From an uncultured Gammaproteobacteria bacterium (GTDB lineage: Bacteria > Patescibacteriota > Microgenomatia > PFEM01 > DATLAM01), in assembly GCA_964566925.1 (NCBI GenBank), contig CAZMIZ010000004.1, positions 35,951 to 99,950 of the forward strand: a stretch of DNA of 64,000 nucleotides, written 5' to 3'. The notes under the pieces were generated by a model. It did no database searches. It worked only from the letters and a program-made list of their open reading frames with translations, and had not been told where the DNA came from. Made by a program: the position numbers and the translations under genes. The first letter of the stretch is position 1, and each line of letters opens with the position of its first letter. This document shows positions 970-63,920 of the stretch, piece by piece.

Positions 970-2109
970 TTAAGCAATAAAGAAACCCCGAGTGAAAAGA
1001 GCGACCGAGATAATCAGCAGACCCCCGGCGATGAGCGGATAAACCGTCTTCAGCCAGCGGTATTTTTCTGACCAAAGACTAAGAAGAATGAAGCCAGGAA
1101 AGCAAACCAAGACATAACGAGGCAATGAAGAAAGTGTCCCGGTTAAAGTGGGCGTTAGATAGGCAAGAATCATAAAAGTGAAATAGGAGAGCCTTAAACG
1201 GAGATAAGCGAAAATTGAAAGAAATAAAAATAGGAGGCCAGTTAAAAATTCTAAAATAACGGTGAAATAAGTCGGAGTCATTTTCTCAACCGTCACCAAC
1301 ATCTTCAGATAGCGCCAAAAAACCTGATATAGAAGAATAATCTTGCCCCCAGTCCGCTGAGCTCCGAAAAACGGCTGAACATGAATGAAATAAAGAGGAT
1401 CACTCACCGTCTGTCTCAAGTACCCCATATAGATTAAAAGCCCCAAGCCAATCAAAAATAGAGGCAAAAGACTGGTTAATTTTTTCTTTTTCAATTTTTC
1501 GTTCTGCTGAAACCACTCGACCAGAAGAGCCGGAAATAAAAAAATGCCGATAAATCTGGTTGCGCTGGCCATCGCCCCTAAAACACCAGCCATACCCCAC
1601 TGACCTTTCCGAGCGGCATAAAAAGCGCCCAAAACCAGCAATAAAAATAGAGATTCCGTGTAAATACCGCCGAAGAAGAAGGAAGTAGGGAAAATAAGAA
1701 GGTAAAAAAGAACCCTCTTGGCTTGATTCTCCTTAAGATCTAATCTCGCTAGCTTATACAACAAAACCAGGGCAGCTAAAAAACAGAGGTGGGAAATCAA
1801 AAAACCTGAAAGGAGATAGTTTTTTACAAAAATCGCCAAAGAGCGCATCAGGTAGGGATAAAAAGGAAAAAAGGCCTGTTGAAACTGATAGTAGCCCCTC
1901 TCGGCGATGGTTAGATAATGAACGCCATCAAAATTTGCCCAAGACCAGAGGAAAGGATTTTTCAAATAGGCCCCCCTTCCTCCTCCTAGAAATCCCTCAC
2001 GCAAAGGGAAAAACTTGCTTCCCATCAAAGCAATCAAAATCAAAGCCACCCGCCAAATAATAAAGGCGGTTCCTATCCACTGGAGTAAAGCTTTAGTTTT
2101 CTTGGTCAT
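970..2109 (-). CDS. Polytopic membrane protein, possible GT-C mannosyltransferase (PIG-V/DUF2029-like)
   Basis: 379-aa ORF with multiple hydrophobic segments. Motif WANFDGVHYLTIAERGYYQFQQAFFPFYPYL resembles PIG-V/GT87-like mannosyltransferases. Confidence 0.45.
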   Translation of the reverse strand: MTKKTKALLQWIGTAFIIWRVALILIALMGSKFFPLREGFLGGGRGAYLKNPFLWSWANFDGVHYLTIAERGYYQFQQAFFPFYPYLMRSLAIFVKNYLLSGFLISHLCFLAALVLLYKLARLDLKENQAKRVLFYLLIFPTSFFFGGIYTESLFLLLVLGAFYAARKGQWGMAGVLGAMASATRFIGIFLFPALLVEWFQQNEKLKKKKLTSLLPLFLIGLGLLIYMGYLRQTVSDPLYFIHVQPFFGAQRTGGKIILLYQVFWRYLKMLVTVEKMTPTYFTVILEFLTGLLFLFLSIFAYLRLRLSYFTFMILAYLTPTLTGTLSSLPRYVLVCFPGFILLSLWSEKYRWLKTVYPLIAGGLLIISVALFTRGFFIA

Positions 2110-3151
2110 AAACTTTTTGGTAAACCTTAACTGTCTCTCGAGCGGTTTTCTCCCAACTAAACTTTTCTACTTGTTTTAACCCTTTCTTAACCAGTTTTTC
2201 TCTCAGTATTTTATCATTAAACACTTTTTTAATCCCCCGACCAATCTCTCTTCTCCGGTGGGGATTAACCATGACCGCGGCTCCCCCACAGATTTCTGGC
2301 AAGCTTGAAGTCTCGGCCGCAACTACCGGCGTTCCGCAAGCCATGGCCTCCAAAACTGGCAAACCAAAGCCTTCATAAAAAGAGGGTTGACAATAAACGG
2401 TGGCCAAATTATAGAGGGCCACTAAATCTTTTATTGGCACAAAGCCAATCCGGATAACATCAGGGTCCTTTCCATACAATTTAATTAATTGAACTAAAGG
2501 CTGATCTTCAATATGAGAAGAGTTAAAATTTTCCTGAGCGGCGGGTTTGCTAACAATGACAATTTTAATTTTCGCTTGTTTAGACGCCTCCACTAAACCT
2601 AAAACATTTTTATTATAATTAATATCGCCAACATAAAGAACAAACTTTTCTGGCAAGCTATATTTTTTCTTTAATCTTAATAATAACTTTCCCGACTTGA
2701 TTGGTTTAAACTCCTCTCCAGGCGCCAGATGAATAACCTTAATTCCTTTTTTAGGAAAACCGATAAATCGAACAATATCTTCTTTTGAATTTTGAGAATC
2801 AGTAATAATCGCCTTGGCTCCCTTTAAAGAATGCTTCTGGATCTGATATTTGGCGCTCCCCCGTAAGCCCTTAGGAAATTTATCAGGAAAAACCAGAGGA
2901 GTTAAATCATGAACGGTTACCACCGTCGGCCTAGACTTTTTTAAAGGTAAAGTCAACCAGAATAAGTCAAAGTAGGGATAGTGGATCAGATCAAATTGAT
3001 GATTGATGATTGATGATTGATGATTGATAAGAAAATACTCGTTTTTCTGATCATGTTTTTTTAATGATTCAACCAAGCACTTGGTATAAACTCCCACGCC
3101 CCGAAATTGATGGGAAGACTTTAGTGGAGAAATATCAATTGCCACTTTCAT
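2093..3151 (-). CDS. GT4 (group 1) glycosyltransferase
   Basis: Canonical GT4 C-terminal motif EGFGLPVLEAMACGTPVVAAETSSLPEICGGAAV. Contains an in-frame (ATTGATG)~5 repeat. Confidence 0.85.
   Translation of the reverse strand: MKVAIDISPLKSSHQFRGVGVYTKCLVESLKKHDQKNEYFLINHQSSIINHQFDLIHYPYFDLFWLTLPLKKSRPTVVTVHDLTPLVFPDKFPKGLRGSAKYQIQKHSLKGAKAIITDSQNSKEDIVRFIGFPKKGIKVIHLAPGEEFKPIKSGKLLLRLKKKYSLPEKFVLYVGDINYNKNVLGLVEASKQAKIKIVIVSKPAAQENFNSSHIEDQPLVQLIKLYGKDPDVIRIGFVPIKDLVALYNLATVYCQPSFYEGFGLPVLEAMACGTPVVAAETSSLPEICGGAAVMVNPHRRREIGRGIKKVFNDKILREKLVKKGLKQVEKFSWEKTARETVKVYQKVYDQEN
2995..3028. repeat. (ATTGATG)x~4.9 heptanucleotide tandem repeat inside the GT4 CDS (encodes INHQSSIINHQ)
   Basis: Read directly: attgatg attgatg attgatg attgatg attgat. 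Confidence 0.9.
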
Positions 3152-6849: not shown

Positions 6850-8434
6850 TGAGATAATAAATAGTTTTAATGGTCCTAATCCCTTTGGGAAATTCTTCAG
6901 GTAAACCAACAAAAAGAACATTCTCCTCTTCTCTATCCTTTTGCCAATCAATAGGCCGGAATTCGTAGCGGTCAAATTTGTTTCCTTCTTCGGCAAAGCC
7001 CCCGGAAGTCGTTCCTCCCTCAGCCAGATATAGGGCGGGATCATATTGTAAATAGTAAAGCCAAAACATGTGAGGTTGTTCCAGGCTAGTGGAAACAACC
7101 ACTTTTTTATAGCTATCTTTTAAATTTTCGGCTACTTCAACCGCCTTTTTACGCCCGTATTGCCAATCAAAAGACCAATCAAGAGGCATGTGAACATAAT
7201 ATTGATGGAGATAATAGAAAAAGTTGGCCGCCAATAAACAAGAAACAATTAATAGCAAGATTCTCTTGGTTAAAGTGGTCTTCTTTTTAACCAGTTGAAT
7301 AAATTGATAAAACCCATAAGCAGAAAGGAGGTGCATGGGAATCACCATATTTAACGTCCGAACCGCATGAGGCAACTCGGTGGTGGGCGCCGCGGGTACC
7401 GGGGCCAGGAGCAACCAGAGAAAAATTACCTGATAAAATTTCGGCTTCTTCTTGATCAAAAAATAGACGCCGGCCAAAACAAACGGCAATTCCCAAAGAT
7501 ATAAAAGGCCAACATTCGGGGCGTGATGACGATTAAGATCGCTCTTCAGGAATAACCAATTAAGATTGAAATGATAAGAATAACCCTGAAGAAGGATCTT
7601 AGTAAAAACTAGCCGGCGATTATGAAACAATCTTCCTAAAAGGTAGTCTCCCCTTTCTTGATCCTCCTGGATTTTTTCAATTGATCGGTAAAGAATGGCC
7701 GGATCGGAAATCGAACTGACTCCTTTTAGCCTCATTCTGCCTTCCACGGAAGTCATGATACTTATCAACGGAAGAATAATGATTGTTCCTAAGATGGCCG
7801 CCAGAAGACAGTGGCGCCAAAGTTTAATCAATTTCTTTCTAAAGACCACCACCAGGCTCAAGCCTAATAAGGGAACAAAAACCCGAGCGCTGTGATAAGA
7901 ATAAAGGGCGGTGCCAAAAAAGAACATCGCTAGAATTAAAAAATTGCCTTTTTTTAGGCCTTTTAAAAACGCCCAGGTACCAAAAACGGTAAAAGAAAGA
8001 GCAATATTGGTTTCAAAAGCCACCCGAGAAAATTGAAGATGCCAGGGTGAAATCGCTAAAAATAACATCGCCAAAAGAGCCAGCTTTAAATCGCCTAAAA
8101 GCTCTTTAACCAGGAGGAAGAAAACAATGACCGTTAAAGCTCCCAAAAAGGCGGAAGGAAAACGGACTGCCCAGTCGTTAAGGCCAAAAAGAGCCACACT
8201 AGGAATAGTCAGGTAAATATAAACCGGCGGTTTGTAATCATCAAACGAGCGAAAAGTTAAAGGAAAGCGGGTACCGTATTCATCTCGGCCGGTTTTTAGA
8301 AGCGAATAGGCATTATAGCCCAGAGCGGCCTCATCCCAATCTAAACTAGGCGGATTATTTCCTAGTTGATAGAAACGCAAACCAAAGGCTAAAATAATAA
8401 TCCCTACTAAGATCAACTTAAAACGTAAATTCAT
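6812..8434 (-). CDS. GT39 family (PMT/ArnT-type, lipid-carrier-dependent) glycosyltransferase
   Basis: LRFYQLGNNPPSLDWDEAALGYNAYSLLKTGRDEYGTRFPLTFRSFDDYKPPVYIYL... is a typical PMT_2 N-terminal region. 4-nt overlap with the upstream paralog. Confidence 0.8.
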   Translation of the reverse strand: MNLRFKLILVGIIILAFGLRFYQLGNNPPSLDWDEAALGYNAYSLLKTGRDEYGTRFPLTFRSFDDYKPPVYIYLTIPSVALFGLNDWAVRFPSAFLGALTVIVFFLLVKELLGDLKLALLAMLFLAISPWHLQFSRVAFETNIALSFTVFGTWAFLKGLKKGNFLILAMFFFGTALYSYHSARVFVPLLGLSLVVVFRKKLIKLWRHCLLAAILGTIIILPLISIMTSVEGRMRLKGVSSISDPAILYRSIEKIQEDQERGDYLLGRLFHNRRLVFTKILLQGYSYHFNLNWLFLKSDLNRHHAPNVGLLYLWELPFVLAGVYFLIKKKPKFYQVIFLWLLLAPVPAAPTTELPHAVRTLNMVIPMHLLSAYGFYQFIQLVKKKTTLTKRILLLIVSCLLAANFFYYLHQYYVHMPLDWSFDWQYGRKKAVEVAENLKDSYKKVVVSTSLEQPHMFWLYYLQYDPALYLAEGGTTSGGFAEEGNKFDRYEFRPIDWQKDREEENVLFVGLPEEFPKGIRTIKTIYYLNGEEAIKIVRKI

Positions 8435-10065: not shown

Positions 10066-12530
10066 TTTCTTAAAAAAGCGAAAATTAAGGCCATTGTTAA
10101 AAAAGCAACTAAAGAAACTAGAGAAATTACCTTGCCTATATTATAACCCATGGGGTGATAGACGAAACTAATGAGGTGCTCTCCCTCCGGGACGACCACT
10201 GATCTGAAGGCATAATTAGCCCGATAGACTTTAGTGGGAAAGCCATCAAGGAAGGCTTGCCAGCCAGGATAGTAATTGTCTGAAAAGAAAAGGAGTTGAG
10301 AATGGTCTGTCTCGGCGCTCATCACCACCTCTTGTGGCTCATAAGTTTTGATTTCTAAAAAGGATTCTCTTTGGCTATCCCCCTCCTTAAAATTGTTAGG
10401 CTTTTCTTCTAAAACAACCTTTTCTTTTAAATCAAAATCAGGATTAAAAAGAGAGTCTAGGATTTTTTGAGGGTCTTTTTCAACCACCACCTTGTCAACC
10501 AAAAACGCCCGAGGGAAAACATCCAGATATTCAAACACATACCAGTCTCCTTTATGCCAAACCTGTTTAAAAACTTCTTTAGGGAATCTCTTTTTCAGAG
10601 TCATCACCGACGTTCGGTCGTCATAATAAGCTAAATATTTCACCCCCAAAAGAGATAAAAGCCTCAATCTCCTCTGATTATCCAAAAGGCCCTCTTCGTT
10701 GCCTAAGTCAGAAAGCTTAGCTTCGATTCTGGGAATGTTATTGGTGATCAAACCGTCGTTCTCGGCGGCAAAGAGGAGCTGGCCATATTGATTAGAAAAG
10801 ATCGGATCTAAACCTTCCGGAGAATAAAGCTGTTCATAAGTGGCAATATTGCCCGGTATTGGCTCACCAAAAGCAATAAAGCGATAAGGCGGAAAAGAAT
10901 GTTGTTTTAAAAACGAAAAGACTGGGTGTCGGGGGTATAAAAATTGAGGGTAACCAAGCGAGAGATATTTATTCAAAAAATAAAATTGGCCTAATAAAGT
11001 AAGCAGAATCAGTCCGGCTAAAGCAGGGCGGCGCCATTTTTTCAATCTGATTAAAATAAGTCCTGAGCCGAGCAAGAAGAGAGATAAAAAAATGTTTTTG
11101 ATCATCACCAGGGCACTATTCTGGTCAACTTTTATGCCTGGCCTAATCATCAAATTATTAAGAGGCTGCAAAATTTGAGGATTAAATTTCCACAAAATAA
11201 ACCCGTAAGTCATGGCTAAAACAAGGGTTCCTAAGAGAATGAGAAAAATAATTTTGGTTGATTTTTTGATTTTTAGGGAGCGGTCTTCTAACCAGAAAGA
11301 AAGGCCAAAAGCGGAGAGCGCCGCCAAACAAAAGGTAGTAATAATGAGAATCCGGCTCGGTAAGAAGGTGGGAATCAGCGGCAAGGGCAAATGATAAAAC
11401 GCTTGAGTTAAAGGCGAGTCAATCATCAGAAAAAAGGAAATTAAGGCCCCTAGCCCAAAAAAACGAACTGAATGATTTAGCCTAAATCTTAAAAAGGCCA
11501 GCAAGGCAAAAAACAAAGGGATCACCCCAATAAAAAGCAAGGTTTCGTGATAGAATCCTCGGCCAAAAAAATTATAAACACCAGGATTGCCAAAAATGTC
11601 TGGAACCAGAACGTTTAGAAAGTGGCTGGCTGGCAAAAGATAGGTATCAAACAGATAAAGGGCCGATGAGGTTGGTCTCGGCGATTCAAAGAAAGCCTCT
11701 ATTGATGGCAAAAGCTGGATAGCCGAAAGAGAAAGGGTAAAAATAAACATTCCCACCAAAAGAAGGCTGCTTTTCAACCTCGTTTTCTTCTTTTCCTCTT
11801 TTATTTGGAATAAACCATAAAGAAAAGCAAAAACGAAAAGGTAGAAGCTAATCTGAAAAAAGCCAGCTAAAAAAGAACAAGTTAAAGCCAAAACGCTGAT
11901 TAAGAAAAACCAGCCTTTTTTGGTCCTGAAAAAACCTTCCAGGCCAAACAAAATTAAGGGCAGCCAAAGAGCGGCCTGGGCAACCACAGCATTCTCTTGT
12001 CCCCAAACAATCATAAAACCTGAAAAACCAAAGGCGAAGGCGCCAAAAAAAGCGGCAATTTTGGCAAGCGAAAGTTGTCTTAAAAAAAGATAGGTAAAAA
12101 CCATCGCCAATAAAGGCTGAATAAAAACTAAAATTGACCAGGCAGTAAGCTGGGGCAAAAAAAGATGGAAAACATTAAGCGGATAGAAAATCGCCGATTG
12201 GAAATTGGCTAAATGGGGATTGCCTGAAAAAATGTAAGGGTCCCAAAGGGGAATCTGGCCTTGGTGCAATAAGCGGTTAGTAAAGCTCCGCCAGGGATAA
12301 AAAAGACGGATTTGATCAATCCCGATCGGCTTATGAGGAATTCCCCTCTCCCAGCCTGCAAATTTCTCAGTCGACCAGGGAGAATAAAATTGAGCCAAAA
12401 AATTCGAAGGGAAAACAATCTTTTTTTGAAAAAGAGCTTCTCGATAGAAAAAAAGCTGGCCCAGAAGGACTAAAATAAATAAGAAAACAATTATTTTCCC
12501 TGGTTTGTTTTTCTTTTTTTTCATTCTCAA
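10062..12530 (-). CDS. YfhO-family polytopic membrane protein (glycosyl transfer to envelope polymers/proteins)
   Basis: 822 aa. QIRLFYPWRSFTNRLLHQGQIPLWDPYIFSGNPHLANFQSAIFYPLN is the YfhO signature. Confidence 0.8.
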   Translation of the reverse strand: MRMKKKKNKPGKIIVFLFILVLLGQLFFYREALFQKKIVFPSNFLAQFYSPWSTEKFAGWERGIPHKPIGIDQIRLFYPWRSFTNRLLHQGQIPLWDPYIFSGNPHLANFQSAIFYPLNVFHLFLPQLTAWSILVFIQPLLAMVFTYLFLRQLSLAKIAAFFGAFAFGFSGFMIVWGQENAVVAQAALWLPLILFGLEGFFRTKKGWFFLISVLALTCSFLAGFFQISFYLFVFAFLYGLFQIKEEKKKTRLKSSLLLVGMFIFTLSLSAIQLLPSIEAFFESPRPTSSALYLFDTYLLPASHFLNVLVPDIFGNPGVYNFFGRGFYHETLLFIGVIPLFFALLAFLRFRLNHSVRFFGLGALISFFLMIDSPLTQAFYHLPLPLIPTFLPSRILIITTFCLAALSAFGLSFWLEDRSLKIKKSTKIIFLILLGTLVLAMTYGFILWKFNPQILQPLNNLMIRPGIKVDQNSALVMIKNIFLSLFLLGSGLILIRLKKWRRPALAGLILLTLLGQFYFLNKYLSLGYPQFLYPRHPVFSFLKQHSFPPYRFIAFGEPIPGNIATYEQLYSPEGLDPIFSNQYGQLLFAAENDGLITNNIPRIEAKLSDLGNEEGLLDNQRRLRLLSLLGVKYLAYYDDRTSVMTLKKRFPKEVFKQVWHKGDWYVFEYLDVFPRAFLVDKVVVEKDPQKILDSLFNPDFDLKEKVVLEEKPNNFKEGDSQRESFLEIKTYEPQEVVMSAETDHSQLLFFSDNYYPGWQAFLDGFPTKVYRANYAFRSVVVPEGEHLISFVYHPMGYNIGKVISLVSLVAFLTMALIFAFLRK

Positions 12531-14919: not shown

Positions 14920-15839
14920 ACTTTCCCCCTGACCCTAGAATTGATTAGTTCTGGCAGTTGAGCCAGGGCCTTTCCCAGGCCTAACCAGAACAAGAAATCA
15001 GTAGAGAAGGTCGCTCTGATTAAGTGATACGGAAGCCAAAACAAATGGGGAATCAACATCTCTAAATTCGCGTTTTTCCAGACAAACAAAAATTGGTTCT
15101 TATAACCAAAAACTTTCATTTCTTTCTGACCAAATGTAGGGATATTGGTGGTTTCATGTCGGTGGTTAACCCTTGATCCTGGCTCAAAGACAACCCTCCA
15201 ACCTCTTTTTCTTGCCCGCCATGATAAATCAATGTCTTCCCAATAAGCGGGTCGGAAGAGAGGGTCCATTCCACCGAGTTTGAGCCATTTCTCTCGCTCA
15301 ACCGCCATACTGCCGGCAGTGGCCCAAAGAGTATCCCTTTTGTTTTGATCTTTAGCCCGCCAATGAACCAAAAACCCTCGTTTAAACTCTCCCAATCCCC
15401 GTCCACTATAAACCACTTTTCCATTTCTAATGTCTTTCTCTTTACAACCAACAGCAAAAACTAGAGAATCTTCAAAGTGTTTTAAAAGGGGTTCTAAAAA
15501 AGCTGGCTCCGGAGAGACGTCATTATTAAGAAGGACAACAATTTCTCCTTTGGCCGCTTTTACCCCAGTGTTACAAGCGGCCGCAAAGCGCTGGTTTTTT
15601 TGATGAACCATCACTCTAACTTGAGGATAATTCTTTTTTAAAAAGGTAACACTCCCGTCAGTGGAAGCATCATCAACCACAATAATTTCCCAACCTGCCT
15701 CGCCTGCCTTATCAACTGGCGGGTTGGATTTTGACCAGGTCTGACAGGCTTTGATCACCGCTGGCAAGTTTTTCTTCAAGAGTTCCTTGCCGTTGAAGTT
15801 GGGAATAACCAGACTGACTTTAATACCAGCCATATTCAA
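14916..15839 (-). CDS. GT2 glycosyltransferase (WbbL/rhamnosyltransferase-like)
   Basis: VSLVIPNFNGKELL...IIVVDDASTDGS...VLLNNDV. Alternative start at MAGIKV (15833). Confidence 0.75.
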   Translation of the reverse strand: MNMAGIKVSLVIPNFNGKELLKKNLPAVIKACQTWSKSNPPVDKAGEAGWEIIVVDDASTDGSVTFLKKNYPQVRVMVHQKNQRFAAACNTGVKAAKGEIVVLLNNDVSPEPAFLEPLLKHFEDSLVFAVGCKEKDIRNGKVVYSGRGLGEFKRGFLVHWRAKDQNKRDTLWATAGSMAVEREKWLKLGGMDPLFRPAYWEDIDLSWRARKRGWRVVFEPGSRVNHRHETTNIPTFGQKEMKVFGYKNQFLFVWKNANLEMLIPHLFWLPYHLIRATFSTDFLFWLGLGKALAQLPELINSRVRGKV

Positions 15840-18159
15840 AAGTTACTTGATGATTTCCTTCCGGGACAATCACTCCCCGGAAATTATAATCGGCCCGATA
15901 AATTTGAGTTCCTTGGCCGTCAATTTTTGCTTGCCAGCCGGGGTAAAAAGAATCAGTTAAAACCAAAATCCCTGACTGGCTGGTTTCCACCTCAATAAGA
16001 ACCTTGTTTTCTTCATAATCCAGAATGGCTACTTTATTTTCGCCTTTAACCAAACCCGTTTCAGGCTGATCGCTTTCCAAAATGACTGTCTCTCTTAAAT
16101 CAATCCCTTCATTCATTAATAAATCAATCGCTTCTTGCTTATCTTTAGCTAGTTGATATTGGTAAACTATAAAAGCCCGAGGAAAAACATTTTGGTTCTG
16201 ATAAACCTTAGTTTGGCCCTCTTCAAAAACCTTAACCCATTTAGGCGAATCTTCCTCATCTAGGCTTAAAAGATATTTAGTATTCAAAAGATCGATAATT
16301 CTTGATTCGTAATTATGAGGAGTAATAATTCGATTAAATCCAAATGGTGGTTCAATGTTGGCCTCTCCCCTTTCTGAGGCGGCGATGAGCTCAGCGTAGC
16401 GAGAAAGATACAAGGGATCATACCCTTCTATCGTTTGAAGCCTATAAGGAATTGAGAAATTGGGGGCCAAAAGACGGCGATCGGTGGTCATCAAGCGGAA
16501 AACGTCTTGATCTTTTTTCAAAAATTCAACCGTCTCGGTTGAAGGAAAAAGCCATTCTTCTTTAACAAAAGGAGTAAATTTCCAACCAAAACGGAGAAGG
16601 TCGAAGATGGTCAATAAGACAATTCCTATTAGAATTAAGAGTCGAGAATAACGAATTATGAATCTCTTTTTTTTGAATAGTTTCGGGGTTAACCAGCTGG
16701 CCACCATCAAACCAGCCAAGCCAGCAAAGATGGCCGTTGGCAAGATAAGGTTTCTTTGACTAACCGCCAAATTAACTACCCATGGAGCCTCTGGCCAAAT
16801 CTTTTTTGCTCCTAAAACAAAAAGCCATAAGAGACCATAAAAAATAGAAAATGGGATTAGGGTTAAGATTATTTTCCCCCAAGAGATTTTCTTTTTCAGA
16901 AAGGCATCGACGCCCAAGGCAGCCAAAACGGCGAGACAAAAATCAACGATAAAGAGCAGCCTAGTCGGTTGGCTAGTAGAAATCAACGGTAAGTTTAGCC
17001 AGTAGGGCAATTTTGCCCAGGGCGTGGGTAAAGCAAAACTTAAAAACAAAAAAACTAAGAAACTAAAGAATAAGGTTGTTTTATCGCGTCGCCAGATGAT
17101 AGCTAAAAAAGCAAAAATTAAAGGAATCACCCCCAGATATCCCAGGAACTCGGCGTAATTAAAAATCCCCCAATAATTCAAGGTGGTTGGGTTGCCAAAA
17201 AAATCAGGTGCTAAGAATTGAACTAGGTTTTGCCAAGGAATAAACCAGCCAGGTTGATTGAATTGAGACTGATCGATCTCTCTGGCGCTCAATTTAATAA
17301 ATTGAAGAGTGGGTAACCACTGGATTGAGGTAAGCAAAAGGAATAATGAATAAAGAAAACAGAACAGAAGAATTAGTTTGCGGCGATCTTTTTTAGTTTG
17401 GAGTAATCGCCAAACTAAATAGATAATCGAAAATAAAACTAAATAAAAAGAGGTCTGTAAATGGCCAGCCAAAAAAGAGACTGTAAGAGAAAAAACAAAG
17501 ACCAAACCCCAAAGTAGTAAATTTCCACTTTTACTTAATACTTGAGACTTAATACTTAAGACTATCTTGTCGATGGCCAGCAAAATTAAAGGCATCCATA
17601 AGGCCACCTGAAGAACCGTTCCCCATTCGAGCCAGGCAATAAAAAAGCCGGAAAGCGAAAAACTGATTGCCCCCAGAAAAGCGGCCAGCTTTTCTAGCTT
17701 TAGCTGGCGAAGATAAGCATAAAGGAAAAAGCCGGCCAAAAGCGGCTGAAGGAAAATTAGGCCACTCCAAGCCAAATTAAAAGGTAAAACAAAAAATAAA
17801 ATATTCAGAGGGTAAAAAACGGCCCCTTGAAGATTGGCTAAGAGTGGTCCCCCAGCTAAGGTATAAGGATTCCATAAAGGCAGTTGGCCCTGGGAAATTA
17901 AATCAATCCCTAACTCCCGCCAGGGATATTGTTGGCGCACCGGATCAGTGATTAGAAAATTTTTAAAAGGCACCCCGGCGGTGAAATTATCCCAGACAAC
18001 ATCTCTCCAGGGATGATACATGCCCACAATCGTGTCGGCTGGAAGAGGCAAGAGGCCACCAAGTAAAAATTGATGGAAAAAAATCGCCACTACTAGGCCG
18101 ATGAGGATTATCGACCAATGAGCAACGATCAAACTTTTAAGGCTTGATAATTTCATCAA
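15820..18159 (-). CDS. YfhO-family polytopic membrane protein (paralog 2)
   Basis: QYPWRELGIDLISQGQLPLWNPYTLAGGPLLANLQGAVFYPLN. Confidence 0.8.
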   Translation of the reverse strand: MMKLSSLKSLIVAHWSIILIGLVVAIFFHQFLLGGLLPLPADTIVGMYHPWRDVVWDNFTAGVPFKNFLITDPVRQQYPWRELGIDLISQGQLPLWNPYTLAGGPLLANLQGAVFYPLNILFFVLPFNLAWSGLIFLQPLLAGFFLYAYLRQLKLEKLAAFLGAISFSLSGFFIAWLEWGTVLQVALWMPLILLAIDKIVLSIKSQVLSKSGNLLLWGLVFVFSLTVSFLAGHLQTSFYLVLFSIIYLVWRLLQTKKDRRKLILLFCFLYSLFLLLTSIQWLPTLQFIKLSAREIDQSQFNQPGWFIPWQNLVQFLAPDFFGNPTTLNYWGIFNYAEFLGYLGVIPLIFAFLAIIWRRDKTTLFFSFLVFLFLSFALPTPWAKLPYWLNLPLISTSQPTRLLFIVDFCLAVLAALGVDAFLKKKISWGKIILTLIPFSIFYGLLWLFVLGAKKIWPEAPWVVNLAVSQRNLILPTAIFAGLAGLMVASWLTPKLFKKKRFIIRYSRLLILIGIVLLTIFDLLRFGWKFTPFVKEEWLFPSTETVEFLKKDQDVFRLMTTDRRLLAPNFSIPYRLQTIEGYDPLYLSRYAELIAASERGEANIEPPFGFNRIITPHNYESRIIDLLNTKYLLSLDEEDSPKWVKVFEEGQTKVYQNQNVFPRAFIVYQYQLAKDKQEAIDLLMNEGIDLRETVILESDQPETGLVKGENKVAILDYEENKVLIEVETSQSGILVLTDSFYPGWQAKIDGQGTQIYRADYNFRGVIVPEGNHQVTFEYGWY

Positions 18160-27055: not shown

Positions 27056-28684
27056 CTAGTTCAAGTCTTGTCCCGCAGATAAAGGAAGAAAAAAGCCGAA
27101 TTTTTGGATTTCTTCAATCTGTTCGGGTTGAAGGTTGTCTAGCTTGTCTCTTCTCATTAACAAAGGCGAGGGATCATTCCCCTGGCGTAACTGGATGTAA
27201 TCAGCCACCACCGGATCAAAAACGCTTTTGGCGGCCTCGCCAACACTAGAGTATTCATAATAAACAAAAACAGGAGGGTTTCCCTCTAGGTCGTTTTTAA
27301 TTTCGTTTTTTAATCCTTCATTCCAGAAAATCCATTCATAGTAATAAAGAAAGCGATTTTGAGGACTAAGACCGCTAACAAAATACAAAAGCTGTTCAAC
27401 GGGAATCACCATTAGCTTATCATTGCTAGAAGCAAGGTTTCTAATCGCCTGGCCGGTTCCCTCTAAATAAGAAAAGTTCACCCAAAAATCGCGATAATAA
27501 TCCGGTTGGCGAAAATATTCTCTAAAGAAAAACTGGCCGGTAAAGGCAAAAATTAAAATCATCAGAATTAAACCGGCGAAGGTTAGAGTTCTTTTTTTAA
27601 CCGACTGCCAATTCAGCAAGAAAACCCTTTTAATTTGAAGAATAGTCAGGATGATTATCGCGGCCCACCAGGGGAAGCCATGAAAGCCTTCATACAAAAC
27701 CGCTTGAGGATAGACCAAGCGCAAACTGGTGGTCCCGAGCAGAAAAAAACTAAAAACCAGGAATAATTTCTTTTTCTTTTCTTTAAAAAGTAAATACACA
27801 AAGCTGAGAAGGTAAAAACCACACCAGATTTTGGCAAAAAGGCCAAAATCTCCCTTGACAGGCTCAATCAGGGCGATAACCGGCTTTAAAAAAGAATAGG
27901 CCAAAAGACGAGATGCCCCTTGATTGGCGGTATCTTCAAGATAATGGCTGGTGAGTGCCGCCTTAGTATTAAGAAAATATTCTTGATAGCTAACAAGAGG
28001 AGAAAAGAGAAGGAAAAGGAAACCAAAAAAAAGAATTAGGGGGAGGACGATTTTCTTATGAAATTTCTCCCTGACAAGAAGATAGAAAATCAGGATCGCG
28101 GAAAAAGGGATCAGAATAATCAACTGGAAAGGAATTAAAACCAAACTAAAGAGAAAGAGGTATCGCCCCCAGCTATTAATCGGCCCCTTGGCTAACTCTT
28201 TTTTCCAAAGATAGGCAAGAACAAAGGCAAGAGGGTAAATTACCAGCGACTCGCCCAAAAAAAGATCGCCCAACAAAAGCCTTTTTATCAGCTCTATCAC
28301 CAGAGAAAAAGTGAGACCAGCGGCGCCGAAAAAATAAAGAAACCCCAGCCACCAGAGAACCGAATAAAAGAAAACCGCCTCCCGGTGTCTTTTAATAAGG
28401 AGAAACAAAGAATTAGGCTTTAAGGTCTTATTAATTAAGGCGCTGAAAGCCGCGGGCATCGGCTGTTTGTGGGAAAAAATATCAGCGTAAAGTTTCTGGC
28501 CTTGGGCCAGATAATGGCCAGCCATCAAATTTTCGTCTTCGTCAACAAAATGAGTGTTAAACATATGAGACTGAAGCGTCCGGAAAGCAAAAAAGACCAA
28601 ACCAAAAAAAATGATAACCAAGAATATTTTTTTTAATAAAGAAAGATCAGCTGAAGATTTTTTTAGCACCCAACCCCCCTCCAA
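27056..28684 (-). CDS. Large polytopic membrane protein, unknown
   Basis: 542 aa, many TM segments. N-terminal region HFVDEDENLMAGHYLAQGQKLYADIFSHKQPMP. Confidence 0.4.
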   Translation of the reverse strand: MEGGWVLKKSSADLSLLKKIFLVIIFFGLVFFAFRTLQSHMFNTHFVDEDENLMAGHYLAQGQKLYADIFSHKQPMPAAFSALINKTLKPNSLFLLIKRHREAVFFYSVLWWLGFLYFFGAAGLTFSLVIELIKRLLLGDLFLGESLVIYPLAFVLAYLWKKELAKGPINSWGRYLFLFSLVLIPFQLIILIPFSAILIFYLLVREKFHKKIVLPLILFFGFLFLLFSPLVSYQEYFLNTKAALTSHYLEDTANQGASRLLAYSFLKPVIALIEPVKGDFGLFAKIWCGFYLLSFVYLLFKEKKKKLFLVFSFFLLGTTSLRLVYPQAVLYEGFHGFPWWAAIIILTILQIKRVFLLNWQSVKKRTLTFAGLILMILIFAFTGQFFFREYFRQPDYYRDFWVNFSYLEGTGQAIRNLASSNDKLMVIPVEQLLYFVSGLSPQNRFLYYYEWIFWNEGLKNEIKNDLEGNPPVFVYYEYSSVGEAAKSVFDPVVADYIQLRQGNDPSPLLMRRDKLDNLQPEQIEEIQKFGFFLPLSAGQDLN

Positions 28685-30374
28685 CCAAAACGATCGCCGC
28701 TAATAAGGAAACCAAGTTGGCTAAACTGCGCACCGGCGTGTCGGTAAAGACGACCTCGACCTGATGTTCCCCTTCAGGAACATCCAAACTGATCAGTTTC
28801 AACTTACCTGATTCCTGAATCCCAATCTCTTCTTGATCAAGAAAAGCTTTCCAGCCGGGAAAATTATAAACATTAACTCTCAATTCTCCTTGACCTTTTG
28901 TGGTCAAGATTTTTTGATGAGGAAAGTCTTTAACTACTTCAACTTCTAAATCGCCGGTTAAGGCTTGATAGGCTGTCTTGCCAATTCCCTCCTCGGCGAT
29001 ATCCAGCTGGGTGGTACCAATATCAGATAATCTGGTGGCCACTCCTTTGGGAACAAATTCAAAAGAAAGCCCGCTCACTCGCCATTTCAAATCCTTTTCA
29101 GAAGTATAATCACGATCACCAACTTCAAGATAATCAGCAGGCTGAAAATAGGCCTGATTTGAAAAGATAACCAAAACTAAAGGAACTAAAACCGCTCCCC
29201 ACTGAAGAACTCTTTTCCCTTTAAGCTGCTTAAAAATGAAATTGACGCCTCCACCCACAAGCAGAGAAGAAAAAAAGGCGGCTAAGATCAGAAAACGCCA
29301 GGGAAACTGAAGATACCAAAGAGGCTGAATTCGATCCCAGATTAGCTGGGAACGAAAACTGGTCATGAAGAGGGAAAGAATAAAGAATAAAGAATAAAGA
29401 ATAAAGAATAAGCCAGTCTTTTTTCTTTTCAAAAGTAAATAAGGGCCCAAAATACTTGCTAAGAAGCTTAAAATTAGGTGGAGTTTGCCCACTTCGAAGG
29501 AAATCCCGTCCTCCAAGCCCATGATTGAACCACCATAACCCCAGGGGGAATCCCAAAGCTGGCGCAGGTAAACAAAATGAAGCTTATAGTTGGCCAGCTC
29601 ACCGGTCAAAATGGTATCCACTAAGGTTTCTTTCTTCTCCCAAAGGGCTGGCAACCAAAAATAACAGGTAAGGCCTAAAAACAAGATAAACGACACCGAG
29701 ACTAACCAAACTGCTCTTTTCTTTACTTTCTCAAAGAAAAGAAAGAAGAGAACGAAGGCAAAATAAAAGGGCATCAGGATCAGGGCAATGAAGTTATGGC
29801 TTAAAAGCAGAAGAGATAAAAAAAGACTATTGATTATCAACCATTTAATGTTTTTTCTTTTAATCAGCTTGAAGGTTGACCAAAAAACAGCCGGCAAAAA
29901 AACAAAAGTGTAGAATTCGGCAAAGGCACCCCGGACATAAAGATCTAGGGCGTGATACGGTGCATAAATGTAAAAAGCGGCCGCCCCTAAACCGCCAACT
30001 TTCCCAAAAAATTCTTTGGCCAAAAGATAAATAAAAATCCCGGAAAGGATAAACCCCAACCCCATAACGATTTTAGTCGAAACAATTAAGGAAAAACCAA
30101 GCCAATAAAAAATCTCGCCTAAATAATAAACTAAGGGAGGGTAAAAGTTAAAAAGAGGATAGCCATACCCAAAGCCTAAATTCCCTACCCAGCGAGGTGG
30201 AAACTGACCGCCAGTTAAAGCCTGATCAAGTTCGTAAAGTCGAGCAATCTGCTCATCATCATGCATCGGGAAAAAACCGGGAAGAAGGAGAGGTCTAATC
30301 GCCCAAAAAGATAAAAGGAGAATGGCTAACAGCCACCAATGGTTTTTAATTAGAGCGCTTAATCTATTCTTCAT
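28647..30374 (-). CDS. Large polytopic membrane protein, family 'A' paralog 2
   Basis: LLLPGFFPMHDDEQIARLYELDQALTGGQFPPRWVGNLGFGYGYPLFNFYPP. Contains an in-frame (AAAGAAT)5 repeat. Confidence 0.5.
   Translation of the reverse strand: MKNRLSALIKNHWWLLAILLLSFWAIRPLLLPGFFPMHDDEQIARLYELDQALTGGQFPPRWVGNLGFGYGYPLFNFYPPLVYYLGEIFYWLGFSLIVSTKIVMGLGFILSGIFIYLLAKEFFGKVGGLGAAAFYIYAPYHALDLYVRGAFAEFYTFVFLPAVFWSTFKLIKRKNIKWLIINSLFLSLLLLSHNFIALILMPFYFAFVLFFLFFEKVKKRAVWLVSVSFILFLGLTCYFWLPALWEKKETLVDTILTGELANYKLHFVYLRQLWDSPWGYGGSIMGLEDGISFEVGKLHLILSFLASILGPYLLLKRKKTGLFFILYSLFFILSLFMTSFRSQLIWDRIQPLWYLQFPWRFLILAAFFSSLLVGGGVNFIFKQLKGKRVLQWGAVLVPLVLVIFSNQAYFQPADYLEVGDRDYTSEKDLKWRVSGLSFEFVPKGVATRLSDIGTTQLDIAEEGIGKTAYQALTGDLEVEVVKDFPHQKILTTKGQGELRVNVYNFPGWKAFLDQEEIGIQESGKLKLISLDVPEGEHQVEVVFTDTPVRSLANLVSLLAAIVLVGGGLGAKKIFS
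29375..29412. repeat. (AAAGAAT)x5.4 heptanucleotide tandem repeat inside the family-A membrane protein CDS (encodes FFILYSLFFILSLF)
   Basis: Read directly: aaagaat x5 + aag. Confidence 0.9.
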
Positions 30375-35838: not shown

Positions 35839-37335
35839 CTAAAGGACGACTTTATAAAAATAAAGAAAAGTCTTTTCGTTTCCCTTGCTGACCCTAAAAA
35901 CCAACTCTAAAGGCCAGTCGGTCGGTATTTCTTGAGTTTCGTTGAAGAGAAAATAGGCCGGCTTTTCTTTCGCTTTTTCTAAAACTTCCTCAGGAAATTT
36001 GTTTACCGGCCAATAACCTTTAATTTCCACATTTGGGTGATCCCAAAGATAAAGCTCTAATGAAGCCGGCATCAATCCAAAAGTGCCCTCGGTGGCAATA
36101 AAAATTGGTTTATCTTCTGCCTCTTCTCTGGCAAAAGTAACCACCTCATTAACTCCAAAGCCGGCCGGCCAGTTATCAATATACTGCCCTTTGTCAGCTT
36201 CAGGAATAGGAGCCGCTGTTGGTTCAAAAAGAAGCTTGAGGTCAGTGTATAGCGGCAGAACAAAAAACAAACTGCAAACAATCAAAAAAGTCTTTCGGTT
36301 TTTAACCTTGATGGCTAATTGTTCCAAAGAAGCCGCTGCCAAAATCAACAGAGGTAGGCTCATAAAAAGAATAAACCGGGGGTAGATGACTTTGCCAAAA
36401 AAGGCTAAACCGACAATGGGAATTAAAAACCAAGAGACTAAAAGAAGCTTTTCCTTTGGTCTCTCTCTAATCAACAGTAATGAGCCAGCGGCCAAAAGAA
36501 CAATCGGCCAGGTCAAATAAGTGGTCAGCCAATCAAATAATCCCTTGAGATTACCCCAGAAAAAAAGTAAAGGGTGATCCAGCCATTCCTTGATCGGAAA
36601 AACGAAAGTGGTGTCTTTCTGGGCAATCATGTGGAACCAGGGGGAAAGTCGGAGGATTGAATAGAAAATTTGAGAAATCACTACGGCCAAAACAGCTAAG
36701 CCTGCCCATCTTAATAACCTGGGCCATCTTTTTTTATTCTGCCAATCAAAAAGGATTAAGGTCAATGGAAAAAGATAGAGATTGAAAAAACCGGAAGTTT
36801 TGGTCAAAACCGCGCCACCTAAAACCCAGCCCAGAATTAAGGCCACATCTAACCGAAGGGTTTTAACCAGTAAAATCTCAAAGAGAAGGGAGAGGATGAA
36901 AAAGGTTCCCACCATCGCATCCATCAAGGCCATCCGATCGTAGAGCAAGTAAAAAGGAATGAACAAATAAAGAAGCAGGGCGAAAAGAGCCAGCCGTCTT
37001 TTTTTGAAGAGATTAAGGCTTAAAAACCAAAGGCCAACCAAGGAAACTAAACCTGTTCCCACCGAAACCAGGCGGCCAGCGATCAGGGGATCTTTAATCA
37101 CTTTCATAAAAATCATGGTCAGCCAAACGAAAAGAGGCTGTTTGCCGTCGGTTAAAGAAATAAAACGCCAAGAAGCGTCATTCTTGGCAATTTGAGCCCA
37201 GCGAAGATAAATCGCCTCATCAACAAAAATGGGAATAAGACTTAAGTTGATCAATCGAAAGAGGAAGAAAATTGCCAAAAGCAACAAACCGACAGCCAGT
37301 TCAACTCTAAATTTCTTAATTAACTTAACGATCAT
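35839..37335 (-). CDS. GT39/ArnT-like polytopic glycosyltransferase
   Basis: LFRLINLSLIPIFVDEAIYLRWAQ (the DEx motif of ArnT/PMT), then ~12 TM segments. Confidence 0.65.
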   Translation of the reverse strand: MIVKLIKKFRVELAVGLLLLAIFFLFRLINLSLIPIFVDEAIYLRWAQIAKNDASWRFISLTDGKQPLFVWLTMIFMKVIKDPLIAGRLVSVGTGLVSLVGLWFLSLNLFKKRRLALFALLLYLFIPFYLLYDRMALMDAMVGTFFILSLLFEILLVKTLRLDVALILGWVLGGAVLTKTSGFFNLYLFPLTLILFDWQNKKRWPRLLRWAGLAVLAVVISQIFYSILRLSPWFHMIAQKDTTFVFPIKEWLDHPLLFFWGNLKGLFDWLTTYLTWPIVLLAAGSLLLIRERPKEKLLLVSWFLIPIVGLAFFGKVIYPRFILFMSLPLLILAAASLEQLAIKVKNRKTFLIVCSLFFVLPLYTDLKLLFEPTAAPIPEADKGQYIDNWPAGFGVNEVVTFAREEAEDKPIFIATEGTFGLMPASLELYLWDHPNVEIKGYWPVNKFPEEVLEKAKEKPAYFLFNETQEIPTDWPLELVFRVSKGNEKTFLYFYKVVL

Positions 37336-63832: not shown

Positions 63833-63920
63833 AATTAATGACTAATGATTAATGACTGATGACTGATGATTGATGAATTCGACCATTAATCATTGATCAT
63901 CGATCATTAATCATTAATTT
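63833..63920. repeat. Imperfect palindromic array of YTRATGA heptamers (6 direct + ~4.5 inverted) around an EcoRI-like centre GAATTC
   Basis: ttaatga ctaatga ttaatga ctgatga ctgatga ttgatga attcgacc attaatc attgatc atcgatc attaatc attaat. Confidence 0.8.

Follow-up and report, generated by a model that had tools for sequence, protein, structure and literature searches.

A perfect heptanucleotide array in a predicted GT-C glycosyltransferase gene of a Microgenomatia bacterium is probably a slippage microsatellite kept in frame at a permissive helix

A 64,000-nucleotide (nt) stretch of DNA from a bacterium of the Microgenomatia (Patescibacteriota), positions 35,951 to 99,950 of contig CAZMIZ010000004.1 in assembly GCA_964566925.1 and hereafter called the window, carries a gene for a predicted membrane glycosyltransferase with a perfect heptanucleotide array at positions 29375..29411. 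An earlier note on this DNA had combined the array with a second heptamer tract in another glycosylation gene and proposed stochastic ON/OFF switching of glycan decorations. Is the array such a switch, or a product of the mutational habits of its lineage that the protein tolerates? Arrays of this kind proved to be spread over the lineage, housekeeping genes included, and were in frame in all coding cases. The tract is, in our view, probably a lineage-typical heptameric slippage microsatellite kept in frame at a permissive helix. It is best read as a latent frameshift hotspot, and its status as a selected switch is unsupported.

Tandem Repeats Finder (TRF) reported a repeat at 29375..29411 with a period of 7, 5.3 copies, 100% matches and no indels, and an independent period-7 scan returned a perfect 37-nt run with the same coordinates. 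The array reads (ATTCTTT)5.3 on the coding (minus) strand and (AAAGAAT)5.3 on the plus strand. Its coding-strand letters, TTA TTC TTT ATT CTT TAT TCT TTA TTC TTT ATT CTT T, encode residues L322–L333, LFFILYSLFFIL. The earlier note had placed the repeat at 29375–29412 with 5.4 copies; the repeat itself was recovered by both methods, and its end had been set one base too far and its copy number is 5.3. Similarly, the repeat-encoded part of the peptide given there holds, and the trailing 'SLF' falls outside the repeat. In 200 dinucleotide-preserving shuffles of the window, the longest period-7 run was 20 nt and none reached 21 nt, compared with observed runs of 37 and 34 nt. Only two perfect tandem repeats in the window passed a scan with thresholds of a period of at least 2, at least three copies and at least 15 nt, namely the tract at 29375..29411 and (ATTGATG)4.9 at 2995..3028. 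The tract exists, is perfect and is not random. An Rfam search of the whole window gave no RNA-family match, and promoter-like matches around the tract did not exceed chance level.

The host gene (28647..30374, minus strand) encodes a polytopic protein of 575 amino acids (aa), which was characterised by Pfam, ortholog alignment, AlphaFold2 and Foldseek as having a GT-C glycosyltransferase fold. In Pfam, the protein matched PTPS_related (PF10131) with 30.7 bits (cut-off 26.4) and PMT_2 (PF13231) with 27.6 bits (cut-off 26.1). An AlphaFold2 model from 28 homologs had a predicted local distance difference test score (pLDDT) of 83 and a predicted template modelling score (pTM) of 0.87, and Foldseek matched it with a probability of 1.0 and TM-scores of ~0.35–0.45 to STT3, PglB, AglB, Pmt4, ArnT and AftA. 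An HD(DE) motif at residues 38–41 lies in the first loop after the first transmembrane helix; among the 28 homologs, H38 and D39 do not vary and D40 and E41 hardly do. We take this motif to correspond to the first-loop acidic catalytic motif of GT-C enzymes. With a matching profile, fold and acidic motif in the first extracytoplasmic loop, the host protein is a predicted GT-C glycosyltransferase. In the model, the C-terminal part consists of an extracytoplasmic beta-sandwich (~440–543) and a final transmembrane helix (547–569). The closest homologs come from metagenome-assembled genomes (MAGs) of Gottesmanbacteria, Microgenomates and other Patescibacteria. The array falls within a predicted transmembrane helix of residues 320–338 (29361..29417, minus strand; DSSP on the model, pLDDT 91–96 in the residue blocks 321–340), and together with the Pfam matches this bears out the suggestion that the tract lies in a transmembrane segment of a glycosylation gene.

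Like the repeats of phase-variable loci, the tract lies within a coding sequence and its 7-nt unit is not a multiple of three. Simulated alleles agreed with the expectation that a change of one unit truncates the product, which was 334 aa with one unit fewer and 383 aa with one unit more, compared with 575 aa for the present allele. Loss and gain of two units gave 376 and 341 aa, respectively, and a change of three units kept the frame (568 and 582 aa). According to the model, the frameshifted products would lose the transmembrane helices 358–383 and 388–410, the beta-sandwich and the last helix. A search of the contig index with the exact 575-aa protein gave no match, and a homolog search with it returned one identical NCBI protein, followed by 77% identity as the next best. 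When both flanks of the tract, separated by a gap of 16–46 nt, were looked for in metagenome contigs, there were 0 matches.

The position of the tract in the protein is a permissive one. Its 12 residues rank at the 7th–8th conservation percentile among the 12-aa windows of the host protein. Orthologs of 57–77% identity have a helix of equal length at this site without periodicity (e.g., FFILCFLFFVF), and the closest available ortholog DNA (locus L001, 72% identity) aligns codon for codon and lacks the heptamer pattern. The earlier note had allowed that the tract might be simple codon repetition in a helix kept in orthologs; this did not apply, as the ortholog helices have no such periodicity. 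In an alignment of 78 GT-C family members, array-bearing helices were no longer than array-free ones. These comparisons suggest that the tract is a novelty of this lineage, standing at a permissive site where it appears to have taken over a poorly conserved helix segment with no change in length.

A survey of heptamer tracts in related loci revealed a lineage-wide dominance of period 7. The sample comprised 80 glycosylation loci (1.34 Mb) around homologs of the host gene in species-representative genomes. Period 7 accounted for 28 of the 44 perfect tandem repeats in these loci and for all of the 26 longest, and periods of 8–15 were absent; TRF found 47 period-7 arrays in the same DNA. The density of perfect arrays was 21/Mb in the glycosylation loci and 31/Mb in the window. 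Nearly half of the perfect arrays (14 of 30, window included) were held by the GT-C family of the host gene, each with a different unit, at two hot spots, the helices at residues ~200–246 and 308–350; the remaining ones were in GT2, YfhO and PMT-type genes. There were ~30 different units among the 30 arrays, the majority of which lie in coding sequence. In a larger sample for run lengths (L001–L103 and the window, 1.59 Mb), a long tail of perfect runs (>21 nt, compared with 19–20 nt at most in shuffles) was seen at period 7 only, and periods 5, 6, 8 and 9 decayed geometrically. The period-7 spectrum was bimodal, with geometric decay to ~20 nt, a hump at 31–35 nt and nothing above 37 nt. No surveyed period-7 array exceeded 5.4 copies, and the non-coding ones, a small sample, likewise had ~5 units; the lower size bound of the arrays was set by the TRF score threshold. 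The record titles of many MAGs with Microgenomatia-type genes (L001, L003, L005 and many more) name titles such as Nevskiaceae, Bathyarchaeia or 'uncultured Gammaproteobacteria', and look like mislabels.

Glycan contingency switches would be expected to be scarce outside glycosylation loci, and we used loci around rtcB as the control. RtcB is a housekeeping RNA ligase. The control sample consisted of 80 loci around relatives of the window RtcB, of which the 23 closest cover 187 kb. These 23 loci held eight perfect heptamer arrays, equal to 43/Mb, and distant rtcB loci had 1.7/Mb. Arrays within rtcB itself were found in three species, all in one shared variable loop (L092 1254–1288; L093 10018–10049; L081 1246–1272). 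In trmD, arrays occurred in two species at the same protein position with different units (L093 4488–4517; L100 806–833), and a Mur ligase gene had an array at L148 1826–1860; the trmD and Mur ligase gene arrays are perfect, in frame and 4–5 units long. As TrmD and Mur ligases are indispensable to bacteria, an ON/OFF function in their genes is implausible. With arrays in rtcB, trmD and a Mur ligase gene, and a density of 43 versus 21/Mb, the tracts are neither concentrated in surface genes nor absent from essential ones. Two heptamer tracts in two glycosylation genes therefore lend no support to ON/OFF glycan switching, as glycosylation genes make up ~70% of the window and the array density around rtcB is equal or higher.

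The array-bearing loop of RtcB, between AHNIAKWE and LVHRKGATRALP, is hypervariable and carries arrays repeatedly, and a second heptamer-derived insert in rtcB reads SLTSHFSPLT. In the RtcB of the window, this loop is short and array-free. Two non-coding arrays (L089 4497–4531; L103 6724–6761), similarly placed downstream of rtcB in their two species, directly precede TATAAT-like boxes with GCTCC after them and could be promoter-associated.

All 48 coding period-7 arrays were in frame; a random phase would put about two thirds out of frame. An open reading frame (ORF)-extension test flagged seven further arrays as possibly OFF. Inspection covered the four with large gains (L054 2274, L034 9801, L017 16376 and L004 17730), none of which is a broken gene, their sites being gene junctions, the 5ʹ end of a gene or an intergenic promoter region; in the other three, a one-unit change adds just 2–8 aa. 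Two well-sampled analogues of the tract could be compared among relatives. In an RtcB cluster of 23 members, 17 of 17 examined, one of them partial, share an identical (AAGTGCA)4.6-encoded peptide and differ in sequence elsewhere, and in a cluster of Curtissbacteria GT-C homologs of 30 or more contigs, 8 of 8 members have an identical (ACTATTT)5.0-encoded peptide. Because both analogues are invariant, ~5-unit arrays are stable at the level of consensus assemblies. The lineage yielded no analogous tracts that differ in unit number or that occur both ON and OFF, and both the in-frame state of all 48 coding arrays and the two analogues without copy-number variants further oppose the inference of ON/OFF switching. 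All-against-all blastn of the fetched loci for near-identical pairs with 7-nt indels gave no informative Microgenomatia pair.

A Curtissbacteria GT-C variant of 540 aa was considered as a tract variant and rejected, as it has lost 45 aa between two IFLAL direct repeats and not repeat units by slippage. This in-frame deletion (P0273 versus L023 9989–11743), which is either real or an assembly artefact, removes the array-bearing helix. In the distant rtcB group, the contigs L124 and L131 are 82% identical and differ by two tandem duplications, one of 7 nt (GGGTTCC GGGTTCC) and one of 21 nt.

On evolutionary time, the arrays turn over. The rtcB genes of L092 and L093, with flanks ~90% identical, have perfect arrays that match in length but differ at 3 of the 7 positions of the unit. 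Two RtcB clusters that are ~89% identical to each other contain four different, unrelated loop alleles, and many RtcB orthologs have loop peptides with a 7-aa periodicity, resembling decayed arrays. The typical effect of an array in RtcB is to lengthen a 6-aa loop by 7 aa (three units). Chance seeds of 10–14 nt, followed by expansion that is kept only when in frame (three units, 21 nt), would explain the hump at 31–35 nt. In L010 (Chisholmbacteria), two GT-C paralogs share a (CTCTACG)4 array (7847–7876 and 10652–10674) that is 29/30 identical between flanks of about two-thirds identity, a pattern that suggests gene conversion or array maintenance.

Putting these results together, we propose that a heptamer-biased slippage or misalignment mutagenesis, pervasive in Microgenomatia, produced the tract, presumably through polymerase slippage or transient misalignment with a 7-nt preference. 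The tract would survive because it is in frame and because the hydrophobic transmembrane helix that it occupies in the GT-C enzyme is under weak constraint; it may be nearly neutral there. Purifying selection would keep equivalent arrays in housekeeping and essential genes in frame, and the window tract seems to behave likewise, unlike a selected contingency switch; the present allele encodes a full-length enzyme that folds normally in the model. Several points weigh against this account. Simple slippage leaves unexplained how a perfect 37-nt array arose with no change in helix length, and why the arrays stop at ~5 units even in non-coding DNA. The host gene is one of ~15 GT-C paralogs, so its loss could be tolerated or even useful, and a minority of 4- or 6-unit alleles may exist at 29375–29411. 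Phase variation of a glycosylation gene, pglE of Neisseria, is driven by a heptanucleotide repeat (PMC7157529). Finally, the arrays within the glycosylation loci are mildly enriched in glycosylation-like ORFs, a weak effect (25 of 28 arrays versus 69% of the DNA in those loci, p = 0.013).

The alternative that the earlier note had in mind is a contingency locus in which slipped-strand mispairing alters the unit number at an appreciable rate, reversibly switches the GT-C enzyme ON and OFF and thereby diversifies the surface glycan as a bet-hedge against phage or host recognition. If true, this would be the first contingency locus described in the candidate phyla radiation. The non-triplet unit, a perfect array far beyond chance, the truncation before three transmembrane helices and the C-terminal domain upon a change of one or two units, and the location of the gene within a highly redundant glycosyltransferase array are all as expected for such a locus, and the different units of orthologous arrays show that slippage occurs over evolutionary time. 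There are also precedents, established for Neisseria pglE (PMC7157529) and proposed for Haemophilus influenzae (PMC2651432). Nevertheless, we consider a switch unlikely here. Three other genes, rtcB, trmD and a Mur ligase gene, carry similar arrays although an OFF state there would be deleterious or lethal; the array density in glycosylation loci is no higher than around rtcB; and 0 of 48 coding arrays are out of frame, compared with the two thirds expected under random phase. Moreover, the array has 5.3 units, whereas the proposed phase-variable tracts of H. influenzae mostly have 6–38 (PMC2651432), it lies mid-gene (residue 322 of 575) and away from the 5ʹ end, and its closest analogue, the 5.0-unit Curtissbacteria GT-C array, does not vary among the members compared.

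Another explanation is a lineage-specific process, more active than ordinary slippage, in which a repair or replicative polymerase 'stutters' at hot spots and writes arrays of ~31–37 nt (~5 × 7 nt), making in-frame peptide cassettes. It would account for the bimodal period-7 spectrum with its sharp end at 37 nt, against the geometric decay of periods 5, 6, 8 and 9, for the ~5 units of non-coding arrays, and for the arrays in transmembrane helices, which replace sequence at unchanged net length. It would also account for the same protein positions being hit in different species with unrelated units, namely the rtcB loop, a trmD linker, YfhO at residue ~200 and two GT-C helices. However, a candidate enzyme or element was not identified, in-frame expansion of chance seeds also explains the hump, the recurrence of positions may simply reflect permissive sites, and the non-coding sample is small, with a lower size bound that follows from the TRF threshold; we hold such writing to be very unlikely. 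The wider claim that a Microgenomatia process writes ~31–37 nt heptamer arrays into coding hot spots, essential genes included, with the GT-C tract as a recent product, is one that we regard as rather improbable. If true, array writing would generate in-frame peptide cassettes rapidly, together with low-frequency frameshift (OFF) variants, and would be a hitherto undescribed way for ultra-small bacteria of the candidate phyla radiation to diversify their proteins and surfaces. The probability that T-rich codons of an F/I/L-rich helix gave rise to the tract by chance, or that the tract is an assembly artefact, is negligible. The helix is indeed rich in Phe, Leu and Ile in all orthologs, and FFILCFLFFVF differs from the window peptide at just four residues, but chance and codon bias are refuted by the shuffles, none of which gave a period-7 run of at least 21 nt, and by the ortholog DNA without heptamer periodicity. 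An artefact is opposed by the length of the tract, which at 37 nt is shorter than typical short sequencing reads, and by the recurrence of this array class in many independent assemblies.

The surroundings of the host gene and the other heptamer arrays of the window complete the picture of the locus. Positions 1–45000 contain an exceptionally long co-directional gene array with ~15 GT-C-type polytopic membrane proteins (PMT_2, YfhO, PTPS-related, DUF2079 and PIG-V-like), frequent stop/start codon overlaps, and interspersed genes for GT2, GT4, Polysacc_synt flippase-like, GNAT acetyltransferase and sugar-nucleotide enzymes. The neighbouring GT2/GtrA-type genes would fit a supply of polyprenyl-phosphate sugar donors for the predicted GT-C enzyme. 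The second perfect array (2995..3028, minus strand; TRF and scan), (ATCAATC)4.9 on the coding strand, is in frame and encodes residues 42–53 (INHQSSIINHQ) of a GT4 glycosyltransferase gene (2093..3151, Pfam). A decayed array of AGTCTTA/AGTATTA units (17533..17563, minus strand; TRF, 4.4 units, 79% matches) corresponds to residues 199–209 of a YfhO-like gene (15820..18159). In the YfhO-family genes of L012 and L005, perfect arrays built from other units fall close to these residues, as judged by residue number and not by alignment. The intergenic spacer at 63834..63919 holds an inverted pair of degenerate heptamer arrays, not assigned to a strand (TRF and RNA folding), in which ~5 copies of TRATGAY (TAATGAC/TGATGAT-type) are followed by a 14-nt spacer and five copies of the complement (CATTAAT-type). 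The resulting hairpin has a ~35-bp stem, with an RNA folding dG of −34.9 kcal/mol and z = −6.15. Its TGATGAT unit is a phase of the unit of the GT4-gene array, and the pair lies just upstream of a short minus-strand ORF whose by-eye translation resembles a TsaB/YeaZ-type protein.

For genomes of this kind, the lesson is that a perfect non-triplet repeat within a gene is by itself no proof of a contingency locus. With tens of in-frame heptamer arrays per megabase, the lineage offers a tractable case of mutational bias remodelling proteins in tiny genomes. Our literature search for simple sequence repeats (SSRs) or phase variation in Patescibacteria found no paper, and the lineage-wide pattern of in-frame arrays at hot spots may therefore be undescribed.

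Among known systems, the nearest are the heptameric SSRs that are over-represented in many bacterial genomes, whose heptamer preference has been proposed to stem from how much DNA fits in the active site of the polymerase (Mrazek et al. 2007, as cited in PMC4692102). The tract fits this class, as period 7 is in excess over other units and over chance, and both sets share a strong preference for perfect 7-nt repeats over neighbouring unit lengths in the same genomes (PMC4692102). The lineage pattern could serve as a test of this older idea that the 7-nt slippage preference reflects polymerase geometry. The cases published in detail are mostly intergenic (Xanthomonas GGGAATC and Nostoc GGGGAYT; PMC4692102), whereas the arrays described here are mostly genic, always in frame and 3–5.4 units long. 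Unlike those cases, they also belong to ultra-small genomes, those of Patescibacteria, and recur at the same permissive sites in proteins. Short period-7 repeats, some in inverted hairpin pairs comparable to that at 63834–63919, are likewise known from cyanobacteria, from the Xanthomonas GGGAATC family and from the TAACTGA repeats of Beggiatoaceae (PMC4692102, PMC4679880). In those families one unit occurs at many intergenic loci, whereas here the units are nearly unique and mostly coding; as the units differ at nearly every locus, a dispersed fixed-unit heptamer family is ruled out.

Like the SSRs of Neisseria pglE and H. influenzae, the tract has a 7-nt unit in the coding sequence of a glycosyltransferase, and a one-unit change truncates the product (PMC7157529, PMC2651432). 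Those loci have ON and OFF alleles among isolates, and the tracts proposed as phase-variable in H. influenzae are mostly longer, whereas here no OFF allele was seen among the 48 arrays, two analogues are invariant, and essential genes carry arrays as well. A further likeness is to the amino-acid tandem repeats of Borgs, which are also perfect, recent and independent repeats in ORFs, often of membrane or extracellular proteins, and which also keep the frame (PMC9879509). The units of the Borg ORF repeats are divisible by three (PMC9879509), whereas here the frame is kept by the total length of the array. The 7-nt unit rules out a repeat of the Borg type, and, unlike in Borg repeats, the peptide encoded here reads the unit in all three frames.

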